Source of the DNA: an uncultured virus (IMG/VR IMGVR_UViG_2061766007_000422)
Lineage: Duplodnaviria > Heunggongvirae > Uroviricota > Caudoviricetes
Strand: one strand, 5' to 3'
DNA length: 64,000 bases
IMG/VR virus record: IMGVR_UViG_2061766007_000422
The notes under the pieces were generated by a model. That model worked only from the letters and a program-made list of their open reading frames with translations, had not been told where the DNA came from and ran no database searches. The translations under genes were made by a program, and so were the position numbers. Below are positions 4,841 through 63,512 of the stretch, one piece after another (the stretch's first letter is position 1; each line of letters begins with the position of its first letter).

Positions 4841-7800
4841 TCACTTAATTATTCTCTCAAGAAATAAGTAAGTGCTCAATAAAGTTTTTATAAGATTTTC
4901 TTNNNNNNNNNNNNNNNNNNNNNNNNNNNNNNATTTTCTTTCGGTTTGAAATTCTAATGAACCATCATCATAGATTTTAATAATTTTTGATATAATTGGA
5001 TAAAAAGAACCCTTTTTTGTTTTGGGTATAAAATCGCCGTCTCGTCGTATTCCTTGTACCATTAACAACGTGCCCCTTTTTAGCCAACTCGCTTCTATAA
5101 CGTGCTTTTTTCCATCTTCACCTTTCGCAGAAATCTGTTTATCATAAATTGAATATTGATTTTTATAAATTTTTACATTAACTACACCTGTTGGAGTAAG
5201 CAATGTTACTGTATTTTTTATTTTATTTTTACCAATAACTGTTCCAATAATTCGGTGTAGTTTATATACATTTATTACTTGGCCGCCACGCGCCTGAAAA
5301 CTATATTCAACTTCTGGCTCTTTGCTCAAATTGAAAAAATCATCATAATCTTTTTGAGCCTCAGCGAGTTCATGCTCATGCGAATAATAATTTACTGATT
5401 CCATTTCCCAGCGACTAATATTGCCTTTACCATATTTATTAGTAATTTCATCATATAAATTACCATTTAATTTTAATAGCATTTCTGTTTGATGCGTTTT
5501 AAGATATTCGCGCATAGGCTCCATTGCTTTACTATATAACTTGTCCCAAGTTTTTTGAACAATATAAGTGCCGCCATCTATAACATCTGCCGTAAAGTTT
5601 TTTGAGATAAATGCCATAGCTGAATCATTTAACTGATAATATTCACCAGTTTTACAAGTTTTTAAAAACTTATTAAACAAAAATAATTTAGCATAAAAAC
5701 TCATTTCATCTGGAATAAGTTCTTTTGTAATTAACATCTGCATATTTTGCAATGTTAATCTTACTTTTTTATCGACAATACTATCTAAATATTTCCACAT
5801 TATATCTTCGCGCGCACAATTTTCAATTTTATCAAAAGCTCCGCATTTAATTAAATTAATCATTTGCGGCTTTTTTACTTTTACTCGCGCCAAGAAATCT
5901 TCCATTGATTGATAAGGTCGATTTATAATAATTGATTTGATAATATCCGTACCAATACCCGTGATGCCGCGAAGCCCATAAAGAATACGATTATCTTCTA
6001 CAACAGGTGTAAAAGTAAATGATGATTCATTTATATCGGGTGGCGCGACGATAATTCCATATTCACGGAATTTACCAATAACGGTCGCGATTTTATCATA
6101 ATCCGCGCTTTTATTTTTTGCCTTTGGCTTTTCTTCATCATCTGCCATTTCTTCGTCATCATCGGAAAGTGATATATCTATATTATCAATATCTTCTTCT
6201 TCGTCTTCGTCTAATTCAAATTGGTCGCCGCCGCTATCAACAATAAGATTGGCTGTATTCCAAAAGATAATTGGATAATAATATGCCAAATTCATTTCTT
6301 GAAGCGCAATAATGGAGTATGAGTAAGTGTGGGATGCATTAAAACCATAGCCTCTACTTAAAGCCACTTCAATATTCCACACATAATTACAAAATTTTCT
6401 ACTTAAGTCTTTTTCTTCTACACGCTCAAAAAACTTTTTCGTTAATGCTTCATATTCTTCTGGTTTCTTTTTTGCGATTGACTTACGAAGTTTATCAGCA
6501 AATTGCAAATCCCAACCGCCACATTCTGGCAATTGAACTAATTGCATAAATTGTTCTTGCGTAATTGACAAACCGTTTGAAATATCCAATTCACGATGAA
6601 GAATTTTTCTTTCCTCTTTGGTTAAACCAAATTGAATCATTTCGTTTTCCCAATCTTGCGCGCGCGACCTAAATCGTGCGTATTTATCAAGTGGAGACTC
6701 TGCACCTTTTTCAGTTGCCATAAGACGAATAACTGAATTTAAAATAGCCAGTTCATCAACATTACGTGGATGTGTAAGTGCAATACCACGAATTCCGCTA
6801 TCTTGTTCCATTTGAAACAATGAGATAACTTTATGCTCTTGCACCATATCCCACATTTTTGGTTCGTCACGTTCAATATTGTATACGCCAATAATTTTTT
6901 CATATGTTTCGCGCAATGTTGGTTCGGGAGTGATGTAATCATGCTCTATTAATAAATTCAAACAAGTATGTATCTTATCTGCGGCTTCAATAGACAGAAG
7001 GTCCATCTTAATCATTGAAACATCTTCAAGGTCATGCAATTCATACTGTGTAATAATTGTTCCATCGGGAGCGCGCATTAATGCACTGGATTCTGTGAAA
7101 TCTTTATCTTGAAAAACTACACCGCCTGCGTGAATGCCGACGCCGCATATCAAACCTTCAATACTCTTCGCGGTTTCCCACCAATTTGGATACTTATTGA
7201 TTTCATTTATAAAAGTTTGATTAGGTTTAATATCTTCTTCTTCATCGCCATAATACATTTGCTTTAATGTATATGCTGCGCCACGCTCTGTTGTAATTAG
7301 TCCAGATACATATTTTGCTTCGTCAACATCAATTCCTAAACCCCTTGCTGCGGTTTGAATTGCTGCTTTTGACTTTTCTGTTCTAAATGTTGCGACATTT
7401 GATACCCTATTTTCGCCATAAACTTTCCTTAAATGTTTTAGCACCTGCTCGCGCTTGCCGCCCTCAATATCAACATCAATATCAAGGACTGATACGCGTG
7501 CAGGATTAAGGAATCTCCAAGGATACATCTTTGTTTTCTCACGCAAGCAGTTAATCTGAATAATGTCTAACACATAAAGAAGAACAAATCCTGCGCCTGA
7601 ACCACGGGCGGGCATTACCAACGAACCCGCATTCCAACACTCATCTATAATCTTTTGAAGATTTAAGAAATATGCTGACCATCGTGCCTTATTTACTTCA
7701 CTTGATTCCCAAGTCATTGCAAGACATTCATTGATTGCGTTATAAGCTTCTTGATTCCATAAATCTTTATGCTTTTCAATACCTTCAATGACTGCTAAAA

Positions 7801-8855
7801 CTAATTGATTGTCTGCACGATATGGAGACTCAATAAATTTTAACAAATCAGGCATTAGTTGTGTATATCTATATTGTTCCGCGCGCGAATGATTTTTAAA
7901 TTTACGCCAAGGAAGTGAAGGAATTTCCAATGGTTTTAATACACTAAAATCTTCACACGTTTCTTTTATATGATGAATATTTTCGTAAGCTGCTTGAAGT
8001 TCTTCTTCTGTAAGATAATCAAAAAAGCCTCTTATTTCTTCATCACTCATCATATAAGTTGTTGCATAAAAACTTTTTACTTCTCTATCACCATTTTGTG
8101 AATTTAAAAACGCTTCATGAACCGCTGCGTTTTCTGGCCGCAAATAATGGCTATCAGTTGTAATAATATATGGAATATCTAATTCTTTACTCAATTTCAA
8201 CAAATATTTATTTACAAATATTTGTTCCTTTCCACTAGAAGGTTGAAGTTCAAGAAAGAAATTGCCCTTTCCAAATATACTTTCAATATATTTACAAAAT
8301 TCTTTTGCATAATTTATATAAGTTTCATCATTTGTGTCCATATATTGAAGAATGAATTTATCTAATTGAGAGCCTAAACATGCGCTACTTGCAATAAGAT
8401 GTCCAGGATTAACTGCAACTACTTCTTCTAAATCTTTATAATAAGTCATTCTACGACGCTGGCGCGCGACTACATACGACCGCGTCCACGCCCTTGTAGA
8501 AAGTTCACAAATTTGATGATATCCTTCAATATCTTTGCACAAAAGAATAAAGTGATAATATTTATCAACCCCTCGCCGGAAATTTTCATTATTAAGTCCA
8601 TTACGTGTTAAATAAATTTCATTTCCACGAATAACTTTAAAATCTGGATGGGTTTCTTTAATTTTATTATAATATTTTTCTGCTTTGATATAACTTGATA
8701 TAGTTTCGTGGTCAGTGATTGCAACACATTCATGACCTAATTCTATTGCTGTATCAATCAATGACTTAACCGTATTGATACTGTCACGCAATGTTTCGTT
8801 ACTATAATCGGTATGGTTCCTAATTATGAAGACTACCAGGGTAAGTCATCTTCAT
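4841..8855 (-). CDS. dnaE: DNA polymerase III alpha subunit (C family); 5' end interrupted by a 7-nt insertion; true stop probably inside the N gap 4903-4932
   Basis: PHP motifs AITDHE, TTDSHY; RGSGAG, DIDVD, HAGG, KMDLL, YGFNASH; RBS GAAAGGTGG plus ATG at 8855 encoding MKMTYPGSLHN. Confidence 0.92.
4863..4899 (-). promoter_or_regulatory. Bipartite AAAAT(A/C)-N22-YYAC-W5 motif (putative phage promoter); other copies at 1513-1549, 15862-15898, 24902-24938, 34891-34927, 44568-44604, 60762-60798
   Basis: Seven copies with identical 22-nt spacing, each just upstream of a HEG or HTH-HEG unit. Confidence 0.7.
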
Positions 8856-8857
8856 AT

Positions 8858-9568
8858 TTACATCACCACCTTTCTTGATTCATTACGAATATTATTTTTA
8901 TAATTATGTAAAAAACGCCAAGTTCTACAACGATTAATATCATGGAGAATATTAACGCTAATATTTAAATCTCGTGCTAATTGAGCTATTGAACGTGAAT
9001 CATATTTTAGTAAATTAATAATTTCTAATGCTTGTTTTTCATTAATTTTATTAGTGCCTAATTCGCCATTATGCGATGAATGGAGTCCTTGTAAACATTC
9101 ATTTCTAATATTATTTTTATAAGTATGCAAATATGTCCAAGTAATACATCTATTAATCAGGTCAATTGTGTTACGGCTTACTTTAAATTGTTCAGCAATT
9201 TCTCTATTATTTAGTTTGCATTCTTCTAAAAGAGTGATAATTTCTTTAACTTGCTGTTCAGTTAATTTGGCCTGTATATTATTTTCGCCACGATAACAAT
9301 TGCCGCCTTTAATCAAATTATATCCCTGGTTAATTGAATCATAATAATCAATCCAATATGATTCTCGTGCGTCTAACTCATCAGGCTGACATTGTTCTAA
9401 AACAGTAAAATAAAATTTATCCGCTCCCTCTTGACGTAAAATATCATCAAATTTAGAAAAGGGCGAGGGATATGTTAAATGTTCCCATTTTCGCTTTGTG
9501 ATATTGATACTTTGACCGATATATTTTTTATGATTTTCTTTATGTTCAAACATATAAATTCCAATCAT
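8858..9568 (-). CDS. Free-standing GIY-YIG homing endonuclease with two C-terminal HTH repeats
   Basis: GIY...YIGQS, RESYWI, GYN; repeated INRC.TW..LH.YKNNIRNE. Confidence 0.85.
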   Translation of the reverse strand: MIGIYMFEHKENHKKYIGQSINITKRKWEHLTYPSPFSKFDDILRQEGADKFYFTVLEQCQPDELDARESYWIDYYDSINQGYNLIKGGNCYRGENNIQAKLTEQQVKEIITLLEECKLNNREIAEQFKVSRNTIDLINRCITWTYLHTYKNNIRNECLQGLHSSHNGELGTNKINEKQALEIINLLKYDSRSIAQLARDLNISVNILHDINRCRTWRFLHNYKNNIRNESRKVVM

Positions 9569-9596
9569 TATTCATTCCCCCTCCTAATCTATATTT

Positions 9597-9625
9597 ATTA
9601 TATCATAAATTTTCAAAAAAGTCAA
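9597..9625 (-). promoter_or_regulatory. sigmaA/sigma70-type promoter TTGACT-N17-TATAAT; similar copies at 14718-14746, 17867-17895, 18380-18408, 20796-20824, 22251-22279, 25042-25070, 27064-27092, 30558-30586, 37302-37330, 44665-44693, 46286-46314, 48281-48309, 48885-48913, 49514-49542, 52538-52566, 53817-53845, 56157-56185, 57793-57821, 62062-62090
   Basis: Near-consensus -35/-10 hexamers, 17-nt spacing, often TG extended -10, located at gene boundaries upstream of RBSs. Confidence 0.85.
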
Positions 9626-11389
9626 AAGTCATATTTATGACTATCATCTTTTAACTCATAGTCCTCAATAATCATTTGAACATTTACGCGCCCCATATAT
9701 TCATTAAGATTGAGTTTTCCGTAGACCGTTAATTTTTTCATACGATTGCTCATAATATCTTCAATAAAATCGGTATTTCTAAATTTGACATAATCCATTC
9801 CATTGTAAATAATTTTTAAACAATCTTTATTTGGGCCCATAACTTGAATATTTTCTAATGAAATATTTTCTACAACCACCCGTATTTCATCTATATGATT
9901 ACCGAAATACTCTGGATGCTCAGCAAGCGTATAAAGTAATTCATAATTATTTTGACGTGCGTCAAGAATGTAATCAACAAGATAAACATTTTCAAAATCC
10001 GCGGCGGAAAGGTGCGTATTTGCATAATCCATAAGAGATTGTATTCTGCTTACGGCCAGACCCCATCCTGCGGCTGCGTCATGTCCCGCAACATATGTAG
10101 TTAAGCCGCTATCTTCAAGAAATTTCTTAAAGCTTGGCAATCCAATAAAGTTAGCATCGCTGCGAATACTACCTTGAATTTCATTTTTATCATTGCGCCG
10201 GCCAATCATACACGGTTTATGATACTTATTAACAACTGACATAGCGACAAGACCGGTTACTTCTTGTGGAATGTTATCACCATCATCAATTTCAACCAAT
10301 ATAATATTATTGCGGTCTAGTTCATTTTTTTGAATCTTAAAATCAATAAGGTCAATTGCCTTTTCTTTTATCTTATCTTGACGCGCCTTCGCATTTTTAC
10401 CTACGCGCGCGGTTTGTTCCGCTGCGGTTTCAGTATCACCTGATTTTGCGCCTCGTTTTGTGCTTTGCACGATGCGGTCTGGTTCTACAAAGCAATAAAA
10501 CATATTTTCTTTTTCTTCAATACTGCCAACGCGTGTAAGCGCATTGATTAGTGGCGCGATATACCAAGCAATGTCAATTGGATTTAGTCCTGTATATGGC
10601 GGTTCGCCATGCGATTTAAGTGAATAAGATTGCGCATTTAATAGCGTTTTAAAGCCTTTATTATTGACATTTTCAAGGCCATGTATCATAATGTAGTTTG
10701 TTTCTGCGTCAGTTCTATCCATTACATCCGCGATTTCACCCAAAGCAGTAAGGTCTAAATAATTTTCGGCTTGTTGTATGCCTAATTCATTATCTAAAAC
10801 TTCACAGAATTTATACACAACGCCTGCGCCACATAGTGTTTTATTTGTATAATTAGGAGAAAGTTGATTATTTACTACAATAGCATATTTTGGGTCTGGA
10901 AGTATGTCATTACCATCGTCATCTTTCGGAATAGTGTGGTGGTCAAGACAAATGCAACCAATACCACGGTCATATAAACGCTTGTGCTCTTTTACATCAA
11001 AACTACCAGCATCGGGAACTATAACCAATCTAAAATCTTGGTTTTCAATCCAATCAATTTTATCTCCTAAACCATGCTGTTTATGCTCGTGCACTGTAAA
11101 GGATAAATCGGCTTNNNNNNNNNNNNNNNNNNNNNNNNNNNNNNNNNNNTGAACTAGTGAACCCGTCGCAATCGGCGTCAATAACCATCAAGATTTTGCT
11201 ATTCATACGTAAATGATTTAAAAGCACTGTGGCGGCTAACTTAATATTTTCTAAATCATATGGATTTAATTCACACTTTTTTGTTGGGTGTAAAAAATTA
11301 TCTAAATCGGTTACTCCACGGTCTAGAAGTATATCGCGCAACGCGAACATTGGTTCTTTTGAATAATTTTTTCTTAATCTATATTTCAT
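9622..11389 (-). CDS. recJ: RecJ-like DHH ssDNA exonuclease (frame broken only by N gap near 11115-11149)
   Basis: DADCDG, HGL, LDHH, ALGEIAD, GSIRS, AGH..AAG motifs across the two ORF fragments. Confidence 0.88.
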
Positions 11390-63342: not shown

Positions 63343-63440
63343 AATTGGTTTGGAGTGCCTTTACCATCATTTTTGCAATATCTGTTTCACTACTAATGCC
63401 GTAGCACGTGATACTAACATTTGAGCTTAATGGCTCCAAG

Positions 63441-63512
63441 TGCGCCTGGCGAGGATCGAACTCGCGTTCATAGATTAAAAGTCATGTGCTCTACCGACTG
63501 AGCTACGGGCAC
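63441..63512 (-). tRNA. tRNA-Lys(UUU), imperfect anticodon and acceptor stems
   Basis: GCTCAGTCGGTAGAGC D-arm; CTTTTAA loop; GCGAG-TTCGATC-CTCGC. Confidence 0.82.

Follow-up and report, generated by a model that had tools for sequence, protein, structure and literature searches.

The present study concerns the dnaE gene on the minus strand of a 64,000-nucleotide (nt) stretch of DNA from an uncultured cattle-gut phage of the class Caudoviricetes (IMG/VR record IMGVR_UViG_2061766007_000422; this whole stretch is referred to as the window). After 11 codons the gene is broken by seven bases, the first three of which form a stop codon, and from the codon AAC at 8818 onward the sequence is again in the frame of a long open reading frame (ORF). 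Judged from the sequence, ribosomes most likely hop over this break, which would be a very rare way of reading a gene. We consider it probable that the arrangement represents a short programmed stop-hop of tRNA-Asn residing in a homing-endonuclease cassette, and that it is a miniature analogue of the T4 gene 60/MobA system. The elements involved are the following, all on the minus strand of the window:

8870-8863, minus strand: strong Shine-Dalgarno sequence GGTGGTGA of the dnaE mini-ORF, inside the last codons of the adjacent nuclease gene
8823..8855, minus strand: dnaE part 1, the mini-ORF MKMTYPGSLHN of 11 codons, with its ATG at 8855-8853
8825-8823, minus strand: putative take-off codon AAT, the last sense codon of the mini-ORF
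8819..8822, minus strand: gap TAG-G, putatively untranslated; the TAG (8822-8820) abuts the take-off codon and is followed by G 8819
8818-8816, minus strand: putative landing codon AAC, followed by CAT (8815-8813) for the second His of the HxH motif
4841..8818, minus strand: dnaE part 2, 1325 codons, coding for the remainder of the PHP domain as well as for polymerase core, fingers and HhH domain
8825..8856, minus strand: start-codon hairpin of 9 base pairs (bp), UAUGAAGAU at 8856-8848 paired with GUCUUCAUA at 8833-8825

The long frame (4841-8818) matches the Pfam families PHP, DNA_pol3_alpha, finger and HHH_6, and the mini-ORF codes for the first strand of the PHP domain together with the first His of the HxH motif. 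In the uninterrupted relative L003 the match to the Pfam PHP profile begins, at profile position 2, with the L of SLHNH, while in the long frame of the window alone it starts at profile position 5; the first His of the HxH motif is thus located in the mini-ORF and the second one in the long frame. A conserved protein is therefore present in two parts with the break at 8819-8822, and the PHP profile crosses the corresponding junction in the uninterrupted relative. By this sequence criterion both sides of the gap are coding and are parts of one protein. Stops of the main frame at 8860-58, 8854-52 and 8848-46, all upstream of the landing codon, prevent the long dnaE frame from being entered from upstream. 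Read-through from the nuclease ORF, which lies in the same frame as dnaE, was considered and rejected, as these three stops intervene. Decoding of the TAG as a sense codon does not rescue dnaE either, as the zero frame reaches a TAA after seven further codons.

A gap of this kind could be a property of the assembly or of the DNA itself. Contigs of four public sequencing runs (X1, X3, X4 and X5) were compared with positions 8300-9700 of the window. A single contig of X1, possibly the source of the window, covers this whole region with 0 differences. A contig of X3, a run from a different study, covers 8300-8894 with 10 substitutions and without alignment gaps, so that the 7 nt are present there as well; one of its substitutions, T>C at plus-strand position 8817, turns the landing codon AAC into AGC. 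Moreover, a small contig of X4 carries one additional G after 8818, resulting in an 8-nt variant of the gap. The reading made earlier from the sequence alone had described an insert of 7 nt containing a stop codon, a ribosome binding site and an ATG at 8855 giving MKMTYPGSLHN, and the succession AAT-TAG-G-AAC-CAT; sequence and coordinates were exact in all these respects, and reads lacking the 7 nt or pointing to a collapsed longer intron, which would have spoken against it, were not what the X1 and X3 contigs contained. In IMG/VR, contigs bearing the break number 38 and are spread over 28 different metagenome ids. The gap is real and no assembly artefact, and its recurrence is far above chance.

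The runs X4 and X5 each yielded in addition one contig with 13 substitutions over 8300-8812 (513 nt; about 97.5% identical in dnaE), in which 47 letters stand in place of 8813-9586, i.e., of the 774 nt that comprise the nuclease gene, the mini-ORF and the gap. These contigs represent the empty site in close relatives. Such gap-free alleles in the same habitats are what would be expected if the gene were read from a gap-free subpopulation of the DNA. However, the gap-free contigs also differ elsewhere, namely by the 13 substitutions mentioned, and hence belong to other strains. This idea is best treated together with a loss of the gap from the mRNA, be it as a micro-intron or through RNA repair or editing, and the two combined appear very improbable. 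The large, nuclease-bearing and intron-like inserts in the dnaE genes of relatives would be in line with a removal at the RNA level. Yet, a ribozyme core cannot fit into 4-11 nt, no Rfam match at E<=1 was obtained in 8000-10000, and we know of no enzyme that removes such a segment. The proposal that the site could be the relic of a group I intron is not supported, on the same two grounds, the size of the inserts (4-11 nt) and the lack of an Rfam match in this region.

The large inserts just mentioned, of approximately 0.9-1.2 kilobases (kb), occur in the dnaE genes of relatives at three or more further sites, and their flanking exons are in different frames. One such site was found at L019:4309-5242 and is shared by L026, L037 and L047; others follow residue 561 in L023, L026 and L039 and residue 783 in L052, and a further insert is present in L031. 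The inserts of L019, L026, L037 and L047 contain an internal GIY-YIG ORF, and the one of L039 shows a weaker partial match. In appearance the inserts resemble group I introns that carry homing genes; at gathering score, Rfam yielded no match in L019, L023, L052 and L031.

A stop codon and a frameshift after 11 codons are normally the signature of a pseudogene, so that a dead or dying gene was taken into account along with the artefact excluded above by the independent runs. Four relatives were examined: G001 (genome of L019), G002 (L011), G003 (L015) and G004 (L003). G001 and G003, both gap-bearing, and the gap-less G004 are complete: their records have direct terminal repeats, and CheckV rates their completeness at 100%. 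The only gene matched by PF07733 in each of the four is dnaE (a single occurrence in G001 and G003), and neither PF00476 nor PF00136 has any match; apart from dnaE, no polymerase of family A, B or C was found in the three complete genomes. All gap alleles of sufficient length keep the dnaE frame open over about 1300 codons, despite a divergence of about 30% among these alleles. These gene contents and open frames show that dnaE must work in the gap-bearing phages. With the break recurring in so many metagenomes, the frames downstream of it intact and no other polymerase found in the complete genomes, decay of the gene or an artefact is scarcely credible.

The distribution of the gap was followed in two sets of relatives. 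The first set was obtained by scanning IMG/VR with residues 1-406 of the long frame and comprises 78 loci of 51-81% identity, which were picked by DnaE similarity and are hence unbiased with regard to the gap. As L026 and L029 lack the 5' end they were excluded, leaving 76 loci. In 66 of these the gene reads M/V-x-x-YPGSLH-x-H without interruption, and the spacing of the HxH motif is present in all 66; the remaining 10 have a break led by a stop codon at the same place. The comparison of 5' ends called for by the sequence-only reading thus separated gapped from uninterrupted alleles and also linked the gap to the GIY-YIG gene (see below). The ten breaks have the following forms (gap bases with the stop in capitals, landing codon last):

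cat aat TAG g AAC: L010, L011, L020, L032, L038
as the preceding form (cat aat TAG g), but with the landing codon AGC: L015
aat TAG gg AAC: L019
aat TAG ag AAT: L007
aac TGA gg AAC: L062, L072

Gaps of 7 nt and of 8 nt place the long frame in different registers. The sequence SLHN|H results from both forms only if the Asn codon ahead of the stop is joined to the codon that follows the second Asn codon. In the 8-nt alleles a stop of the main frame stands immediately before the landing codon, and no ATG, GTG or TTG is located between the last stop of that frame and the landing codon.

This last observation bears on an explanation that dispenses with recoding altogether, according to which the mini-ORF ends at its stop and synthesis of DnaE begins at an internal start codon, possibly a non-canonical one, so that the protein lacks the first PHP strand and the first His. 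An in-frame TTG at 8791 is available in the window, and some DnaE proteins can do without the exonuclease site of the PHP domain. However, this TTG is not conserved among the gap alleles, others of which have TTA, CTG, CTT or CTA at that codon, and is therefore not the start. Furthermore, the 8-nt alleles offer none of the three start codons in the interval named above, the codons past the landing site stay conserved as protein, and Y/F-PGSLHN is retained in every cassette despite a peptide of varying sequence and length. Translation from an internal start is consequently regarded as improbable.

The second set was collected with the pattern CCNGGNAGTCTTCATAAYTRR, which gave 40 matching stretches in IMG/VR; in this pattern the 3' arm of the hairpin is fixed by design and the 5' arm is free. 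All but two of the matches (L091 and L116, which are unrelated) are gap alleles of dnaE, i.e., 38 of 40, and 10 contigs are shared with the first set. As L120 ends 21 nt after the match, the distances were counted for the window and 37 loci, giving 38 alleles. The distances from take-off to landing codon are distributed as follows:

+4: 11 alleles, AAT-T-AAC with TAA (8) and AAT-T-AGC with TAG (3)
+5: 2 alleles
+7: 8 alleles
+8: 9 alleles
+9 (in frame): 2 alleles, plus the cut locus L120
+10: 3 alleles
+11: 3 alleles

In all 38 alleles the putative take-off codon is AAY and is directly followed by TAG, TGA or TAA, so that the position of the stop noted in the window turned out to be general. 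Equally without exception, reading would resume at the first A[A/G]Y triplet that occurs in any frame past the take-off codon, and this triplet stands before CAY. It is AAC in 28 of the 38 alleles, AGC in eight and AAT in two. Reading of take-off and landing codon by one tRNA-Asn would be straightforward in the 30 alleles with the pair AAY and AAY; a strict match of codons does not hold, as eight alleles combine AAY with AGC, which needs a central G-U pair with the Asn anticodon. AGC at the landing site was seen across four gap classes. At this position the 66 gap-less loci have AAT in 51 and AAC in 11 cases, and the preference for AAC at the landing site fits either a stronger landing pair under selection or co-conversion with the cassette. 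Y or F ahead of PGSLHN is retained in 38 of the 38 scored gap alleles, while the rest of the peptide and its length vary. Altogether, 17 combinations of hop distance, take-off, stop and landing codon occur within this one family. When the last three letters of CCNGGNAGTCTTCATAAYTRR were relaxed to "not C", only eight more matches were obtained, all of them unrelated; this pattern search of IMG/VR revealed no dnaE allele with this arm in which the gap is led by a non-stop triplet starting with A, G or T. A megablast search of 8300-9700 against 50,697 phage records yielded no match.

On the basis of these regularities the following course of translation is proposed. Ribosomes would initiate at the ATG at 8855, melt the hairpin and translate the 11 codons, pausing when AAU with its peptidyl-tRNA-Asn occupies the P site and UAG the A site. 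AAU would then be released by the tRNA, the mRNA would slide by 7 nt and the anticodon GUU would re-pair at the first A[A/G]Y triplet, i.e., AAC at 8818-8816. Decoding would restart at CAU, resulting in SLHN-HTDYS and thereby in a normal HxH motif of the PHP domain. An ordinary +1 frameshift is excluded because the gaps occupy all three frame classes. A P-site tRNA-Asn searching for the next triplet with which it can pair would account for every hop distance, and for AGC by way of the central G-U pair.

Alternatively, the ribosome might slip past the stop and the spacer with a new aminoacyl-tRNA reading the AAC or AGC codon, so that the protein would gain one residue (H-N-N-H or H-N-S-H). AGC in eight of the 38 alleles would then simply mean Asn or Ser at the inserted position, and the +4 alleles (AAT-T-AAC) would be explained by a plain +1 slip. 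However, the HxH spacing is invariant in 66 of the 66 gap-less loci, and during such a slip the P-site tRNA-Asn would have to rest unpaired on unrelated triplets such as AUU, AGG or GGG. In addition, the position is only ever occupied by A[A/G]Y (38/38), i.e., by codons that can pair with GUU, while an inserted residue should vary more freely. A slip with an extra residue is hence rated unlikely, albeit the least unlikely of the alternatives considered here.

The region around the start codon would supply a driving element for the proposed hop. The start codon and the next four bases (RUGAAGA, often extended by U/C) pair with (R)UCUUCAU, which lies in the Ser-Leu-His codons immediately ahead of the take-off codon. 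In the window the free energy of this stem is -11.1 to -11.9 kcal/mol, and it closes on the first base of the take-off codon. All ten distinct gap alleles of the first set form this hairpin. In the second set its energies are -8.4 to -14.3 kcal/mol, and the mini-ORFs, of 11-15 codons, code for peptides that are unrelated between the two arms. Complete pairing (7/7) occurs in none of 58 distinct gap-less alleles and 6/7 pairing in 16, with a mean of -4.4 for the same region. ATGAAGA or GTGAAGA forms the start in 36 of 39 alleles, TTGAAGA in L100 and L122 and ACGAAGA in L097. RNAalifold on 10 alleles detected 0 pairs changed on both sides; as both arms are coding and nearly invariant no covariation is expected, and the stem is not proven by covariation. 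A different hairpin that had been suggested to enclose the site, UGGU-AG-UCUU/AGGA-ACCA, amounts to -2.4 kcal/mol, is not conserved (the +4 and +5 alleles are without AGGA) and would compete with the conserved and far stronger start-codon hairpin (-11.1 kcal/mol), and it was therefore abandoned. The slide would probably be helped by the start-codon hairpin, the 3' arm of which ends at the take-off codon and which could re-form as this arm leaves the ribosome; its stem of 8-10 bp compares with hops of 4-11 nt.

Several observations weigh against the proposed hop or against the role assigned to the hairpin. With only 11-15 residues the nascent peptide is too short for an exit-tunnel signal as needed by gene 60, and the gap with its 1-8 free bases is too short for a take-off stem-loop. 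The 3' arm of the hairpin would still be within the ribosome at take-off. Moreover, the hairpin sequesters the start codon and could equally be an element of initiation control or one acting at the level of the DNA. Landing on AGC, which the Asn anticodon can read only by the central G-U pair, concerns eight of 38 alleles and also the contig of run X3, which is near to the window. For the +4 alleles, a one-base slip with a fresh reading of the landing codon is by sequence indistinguishable from a hop. L097 has ACG in place of the start codon (approximately 45 nt before the match) and no canonical start, while every other gap allele has ATG, GTG or TTG ahead of AAGAC; this may reflect weak initiation at a non-canonical codon, a copy that is defective or an error of sequencing. 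Finally, in the TAG-recoded relative G003 (see below) the UAG of the gap would sometimes be read as a sense codon, giving a short dead-end peptide in competition with the hop.

The gap is closely associated with a nuclease gene, and this part of the region contains the following features:

8858..9568, minus strand: free-standing GIY-YIG homing-endonuclease gene of 236 amino acids, its stop 2 nt before the ATG of dnaE
9597..9625, minus strand: TTGACT-17-TATAAT, a promoter-like site that includes a TG, matches at 11 of 12 positions and precedes the nuclease gene
9622-11181: RecJ-like gene upstream of the nuclease gene

The GIY-YIG domain (Pfam PF01541, E=3.4e-8) comprises residues 2-84 and is accompanied by matches to helix-turn-helix (HTH) families. 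The C-terminal half of the protein (window 8858-9270, minus strand) contains two similar HTH-like modules at approximately residues 100-158 and 170-236, both of which end with W..LH.YKNNIRNE and thus represent an internal duplication. In 12 related contigs this place is occupied by full-length homologues of the nuclease with 54-69% identity, and one further contig shows a weaker partial match (28% over residues 1-119). In tblastn searches of the first set, the nuclease was found directly upstream of the mini-ORF in six of the ten gap loci (L010, L011, L032, L038, L072 and L007, the gene of L007 being cut by the end of the contig) and adjoining the dnaE start in 0 of the 66 gap-less loci; there, homologues are located inside recJ, inside the large dnaE inserts or upstream of recJ. 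This bears out the suspicion that the gap travels with the GIY-YIG gene located 2 nt upstream. Deletion remnants of the nuclease gene are present in three further gap loci: L019 retains only its last codons, with the Shine-Dalgarno sequence among them, L020 retains about 15 C-terminal codons, and in L015 the start of the gene is fused to its tail. L062 is without any remnant. In the second set, where this family alone was searched, a nuclease homologue lies at most 1 kb upstream in 13 of 37 loci.

On a quick maximum-likelihood tree of DnaE (residues 13-412, 76 rows; L061 was dropped as too short) the 11 rows with a gap require at least nine gains or losses. These scattered positions, together with the gap loci that have no nuclease gene, imply that the cassette moves between lineages and that the gap outlives the nuclease gene. 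In agreement with a homing cassette, the distribution at one site is patchy, empty sites exist in close relatives and the nuclease ORF is intact. The cassette is mobile. It consists of the GIY-YIG gene, a replacement of the 5' end of dnaE (RUG-AAG-A start, then YPGSLHN), the stop codon, 0-5 spacer bases and the putative Asn-like landing codon. By analogy with MobA, the extra bases probably break the target of the nuclease in the DNA coding for the HxH motif, so that gap alleles would be immune; such immunity would explain why the gap outlives the nuclease gene.

As to expression, the promoter-like site probably drives both the nuclease gene and dnaE; no terminator-like site was found in 8600-9800. 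In relatives without the nuclease gene the same promoter-like element stands directly ahead of the mini-ORF. Each of the four runs contains many different contigs that match 9588-9626 of the window (depth up to 244 versus about 11 beside it), so that this promoter element occurs repeatedly in these phages. In two relatives (L060:972-1902 and L063:1105-2070) a GIY-YIG gene divides the RecJ-like gene located upstream of dnaE into two parts.

The genetic code of these phages has to be considered as well. G003 (the whole record L079-L088) encodes a tRNA(CUA) at 165546-165630 in addition to 24 other tRNAs, and the summed length of its ORFs of at least 150 codons increases from 29,450 to 51,590 codons if TAG is taken as a sense codon. 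Moreover, the dnaE genes of L015 (at 5005) and L024 (at 3451) have a TAG at a position where relatives have a conserved Gln codon. The gain in long ORFs, the tRNA(CUA) and the TAG at the Gln position indicate that at least some of these phages are TAG-recoded. The long genes of the window contain no clear in-frame TAG, and gaps led by TGA and by TAA exist beside those led by TAG. Six codons further into dnaE, L053 (3016-3024) and L069 (3016-3024) carry an insert of 6 nt that reads TCT TAG TCT or TCA where relatives have DFSNF. Its TAG is the only stop in 1321 and 1133 codons, respectively, and the insert could be a +6 stop-hop on Ser codons or an example of TAG as a sense codon. At 63440-63512 (minus strand) of the window ARAGORN predicted a tRNA with an anticodon loop of eight bases and the anticodon "ttta" (Lys or stop), which can alternatively be folded as a tRNA-Lys(UUU) whose anticodon stem contains a bulge. 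Its neighbours are tRNA-Gln(UUG) and tRNA-Ser(GCU), and it stands at the edge of an array of tRNAs running off the window.

Among known systems a prfB-type programmed +1 frameshift shares with the dnaE cassette that a stop codon in the A site provokes the change of frame. Unlike the dnaE cassette, prfB shifts by exactly +1 and relies on an overlapping slippery codon together with a Shine-Dalgarno sequence located upstream. A shift of this type was rejected for dnaE, as AAU cannot re-pair at +1 and as there are three frame classes with distances of 4-11. Recoding of stop codons in phages is the subject of published work. The 'byp' elements of Magnusiomyces capitatus differ from the dnaE cassette in being mitochondrial, in occurring many times per genome and in having no link to homing endonucleases, and they are longer (27-55 nt). 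Stop-hops have reportedly been the object of work by Weiss and colleagues. In synthetic stop-hops the P-site tRNA departs from a codon that directly precedes a stop and pairs anew with a matching one a few nt downstream, as proposed for dnaE. Unlike those constructs, which are of low efficiency and were made in the laboratory, the dnaE arrangement is natural, conserved and located in an essential gene, and it has a dedicated hairpin. In the accessible part of PMC5009743 synthetic stop-hops are described and natural in-frame ones are said to be unknown. The 'byp' elements resemble the dnaE gaps in being many short mobile inserts that are bypassed by translation, as far as the accessible parts of the sources report (PMC5009743; 10.1101/2022.08.31.505936).

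The closest parallel is the cassette of T4 gene 60. In the available portion of the literature it is characterized by matched or wobble take-off and landing codons and by UAG or UGA after take-off, and it is termed unique by its students (10.1101/2022.08.31.505936). According to the same portion, its insert is kept after loss of MobA and protects against this nuclease (Manning and Atkins, 10.1101/2022.08.31.505936). Pairing of the exiting mRNA was proposed to drive forward bypassing, as stated in the accessible part of a further report (10.1101/2024.12.09.627546). As far as these texts describe T4 gene 60/MobA, the dnaE cassette is similar in several respects: a non-coding gap lies within a conserved metal-binding motif of an essential replication gene, with a stop right after take-off, a landing codon that the same tRNA would read by an AAY match in 30 of the 38 alleles, and a 5' hairpin; the gap travels with a free-standing homing-endonuclease gene and persists after loss of the nuclease; and insertion occurred repeatedly at one site. 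Nevertheless, the gap comprises 4-11 nt here and 50 nt in gene 60, with a nascent peptide of 11-15 versus 46 residues, and it leaves no room for a take-off stem-loop. The nuclease is of the GIY-YIG instead of the HNH type, the gap interrupts dnaE, which remains a single gene, the sequences are not homologous, and the bypass in dnaE is a predicted one. Given the lack of homology, of a stem-loop in the gap and of a long nascent peptide, the dnaE cassette is not a member of the gene 60 family. No paper describing it was found in the literature on translational bypassing, on stop-hops and on phage GIY-YIG enzymes or recoding of DNA polymerase III.

Taken as a whole, a more specific picture seems about as plausible as not. 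Large cattle-gut phages would carry, in their sole DNA polymerase gene, a natural family of minimal programmed stop-hops of 4-11 nt that are driven by the start-codon hairpin and not by a nascent peptide or a stem-loop in the gap. As this hairpin refolds behind the ribosome, the mRNA would be drawn forward over a distance close to the stem length, up to the first A[A/G]Y triplet met by tRNA-Asn. The extra bases would at the same time confer immunity to the GIY-YIG enzyme, and in TAG-recoded relatives they might serve to shut off the polymerase once an amber suppressor tRNA appears.

If the hop takes place as proposed, it would be the second natural programmed bypass beside T4 gene 60, which in the accessible part of the literature is the sole efficient phage cassette known from the bench. 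The family would constitute a natural series of mutants by which the minimal signals for a hop, the tolerance of P-site mismatches (AGC) and the refolding of exiting mRNA as a driver could be tested. Polymerase genes of this kind will be labelled as truncated or as pseudogenes during annotation, which should be kept in mind when such phage genomes are evaluated. The cassette would moreover represent a route by which a selfish nuclease, needing neither an intron nor an intein, enters an essential gene at its most conserved motif.

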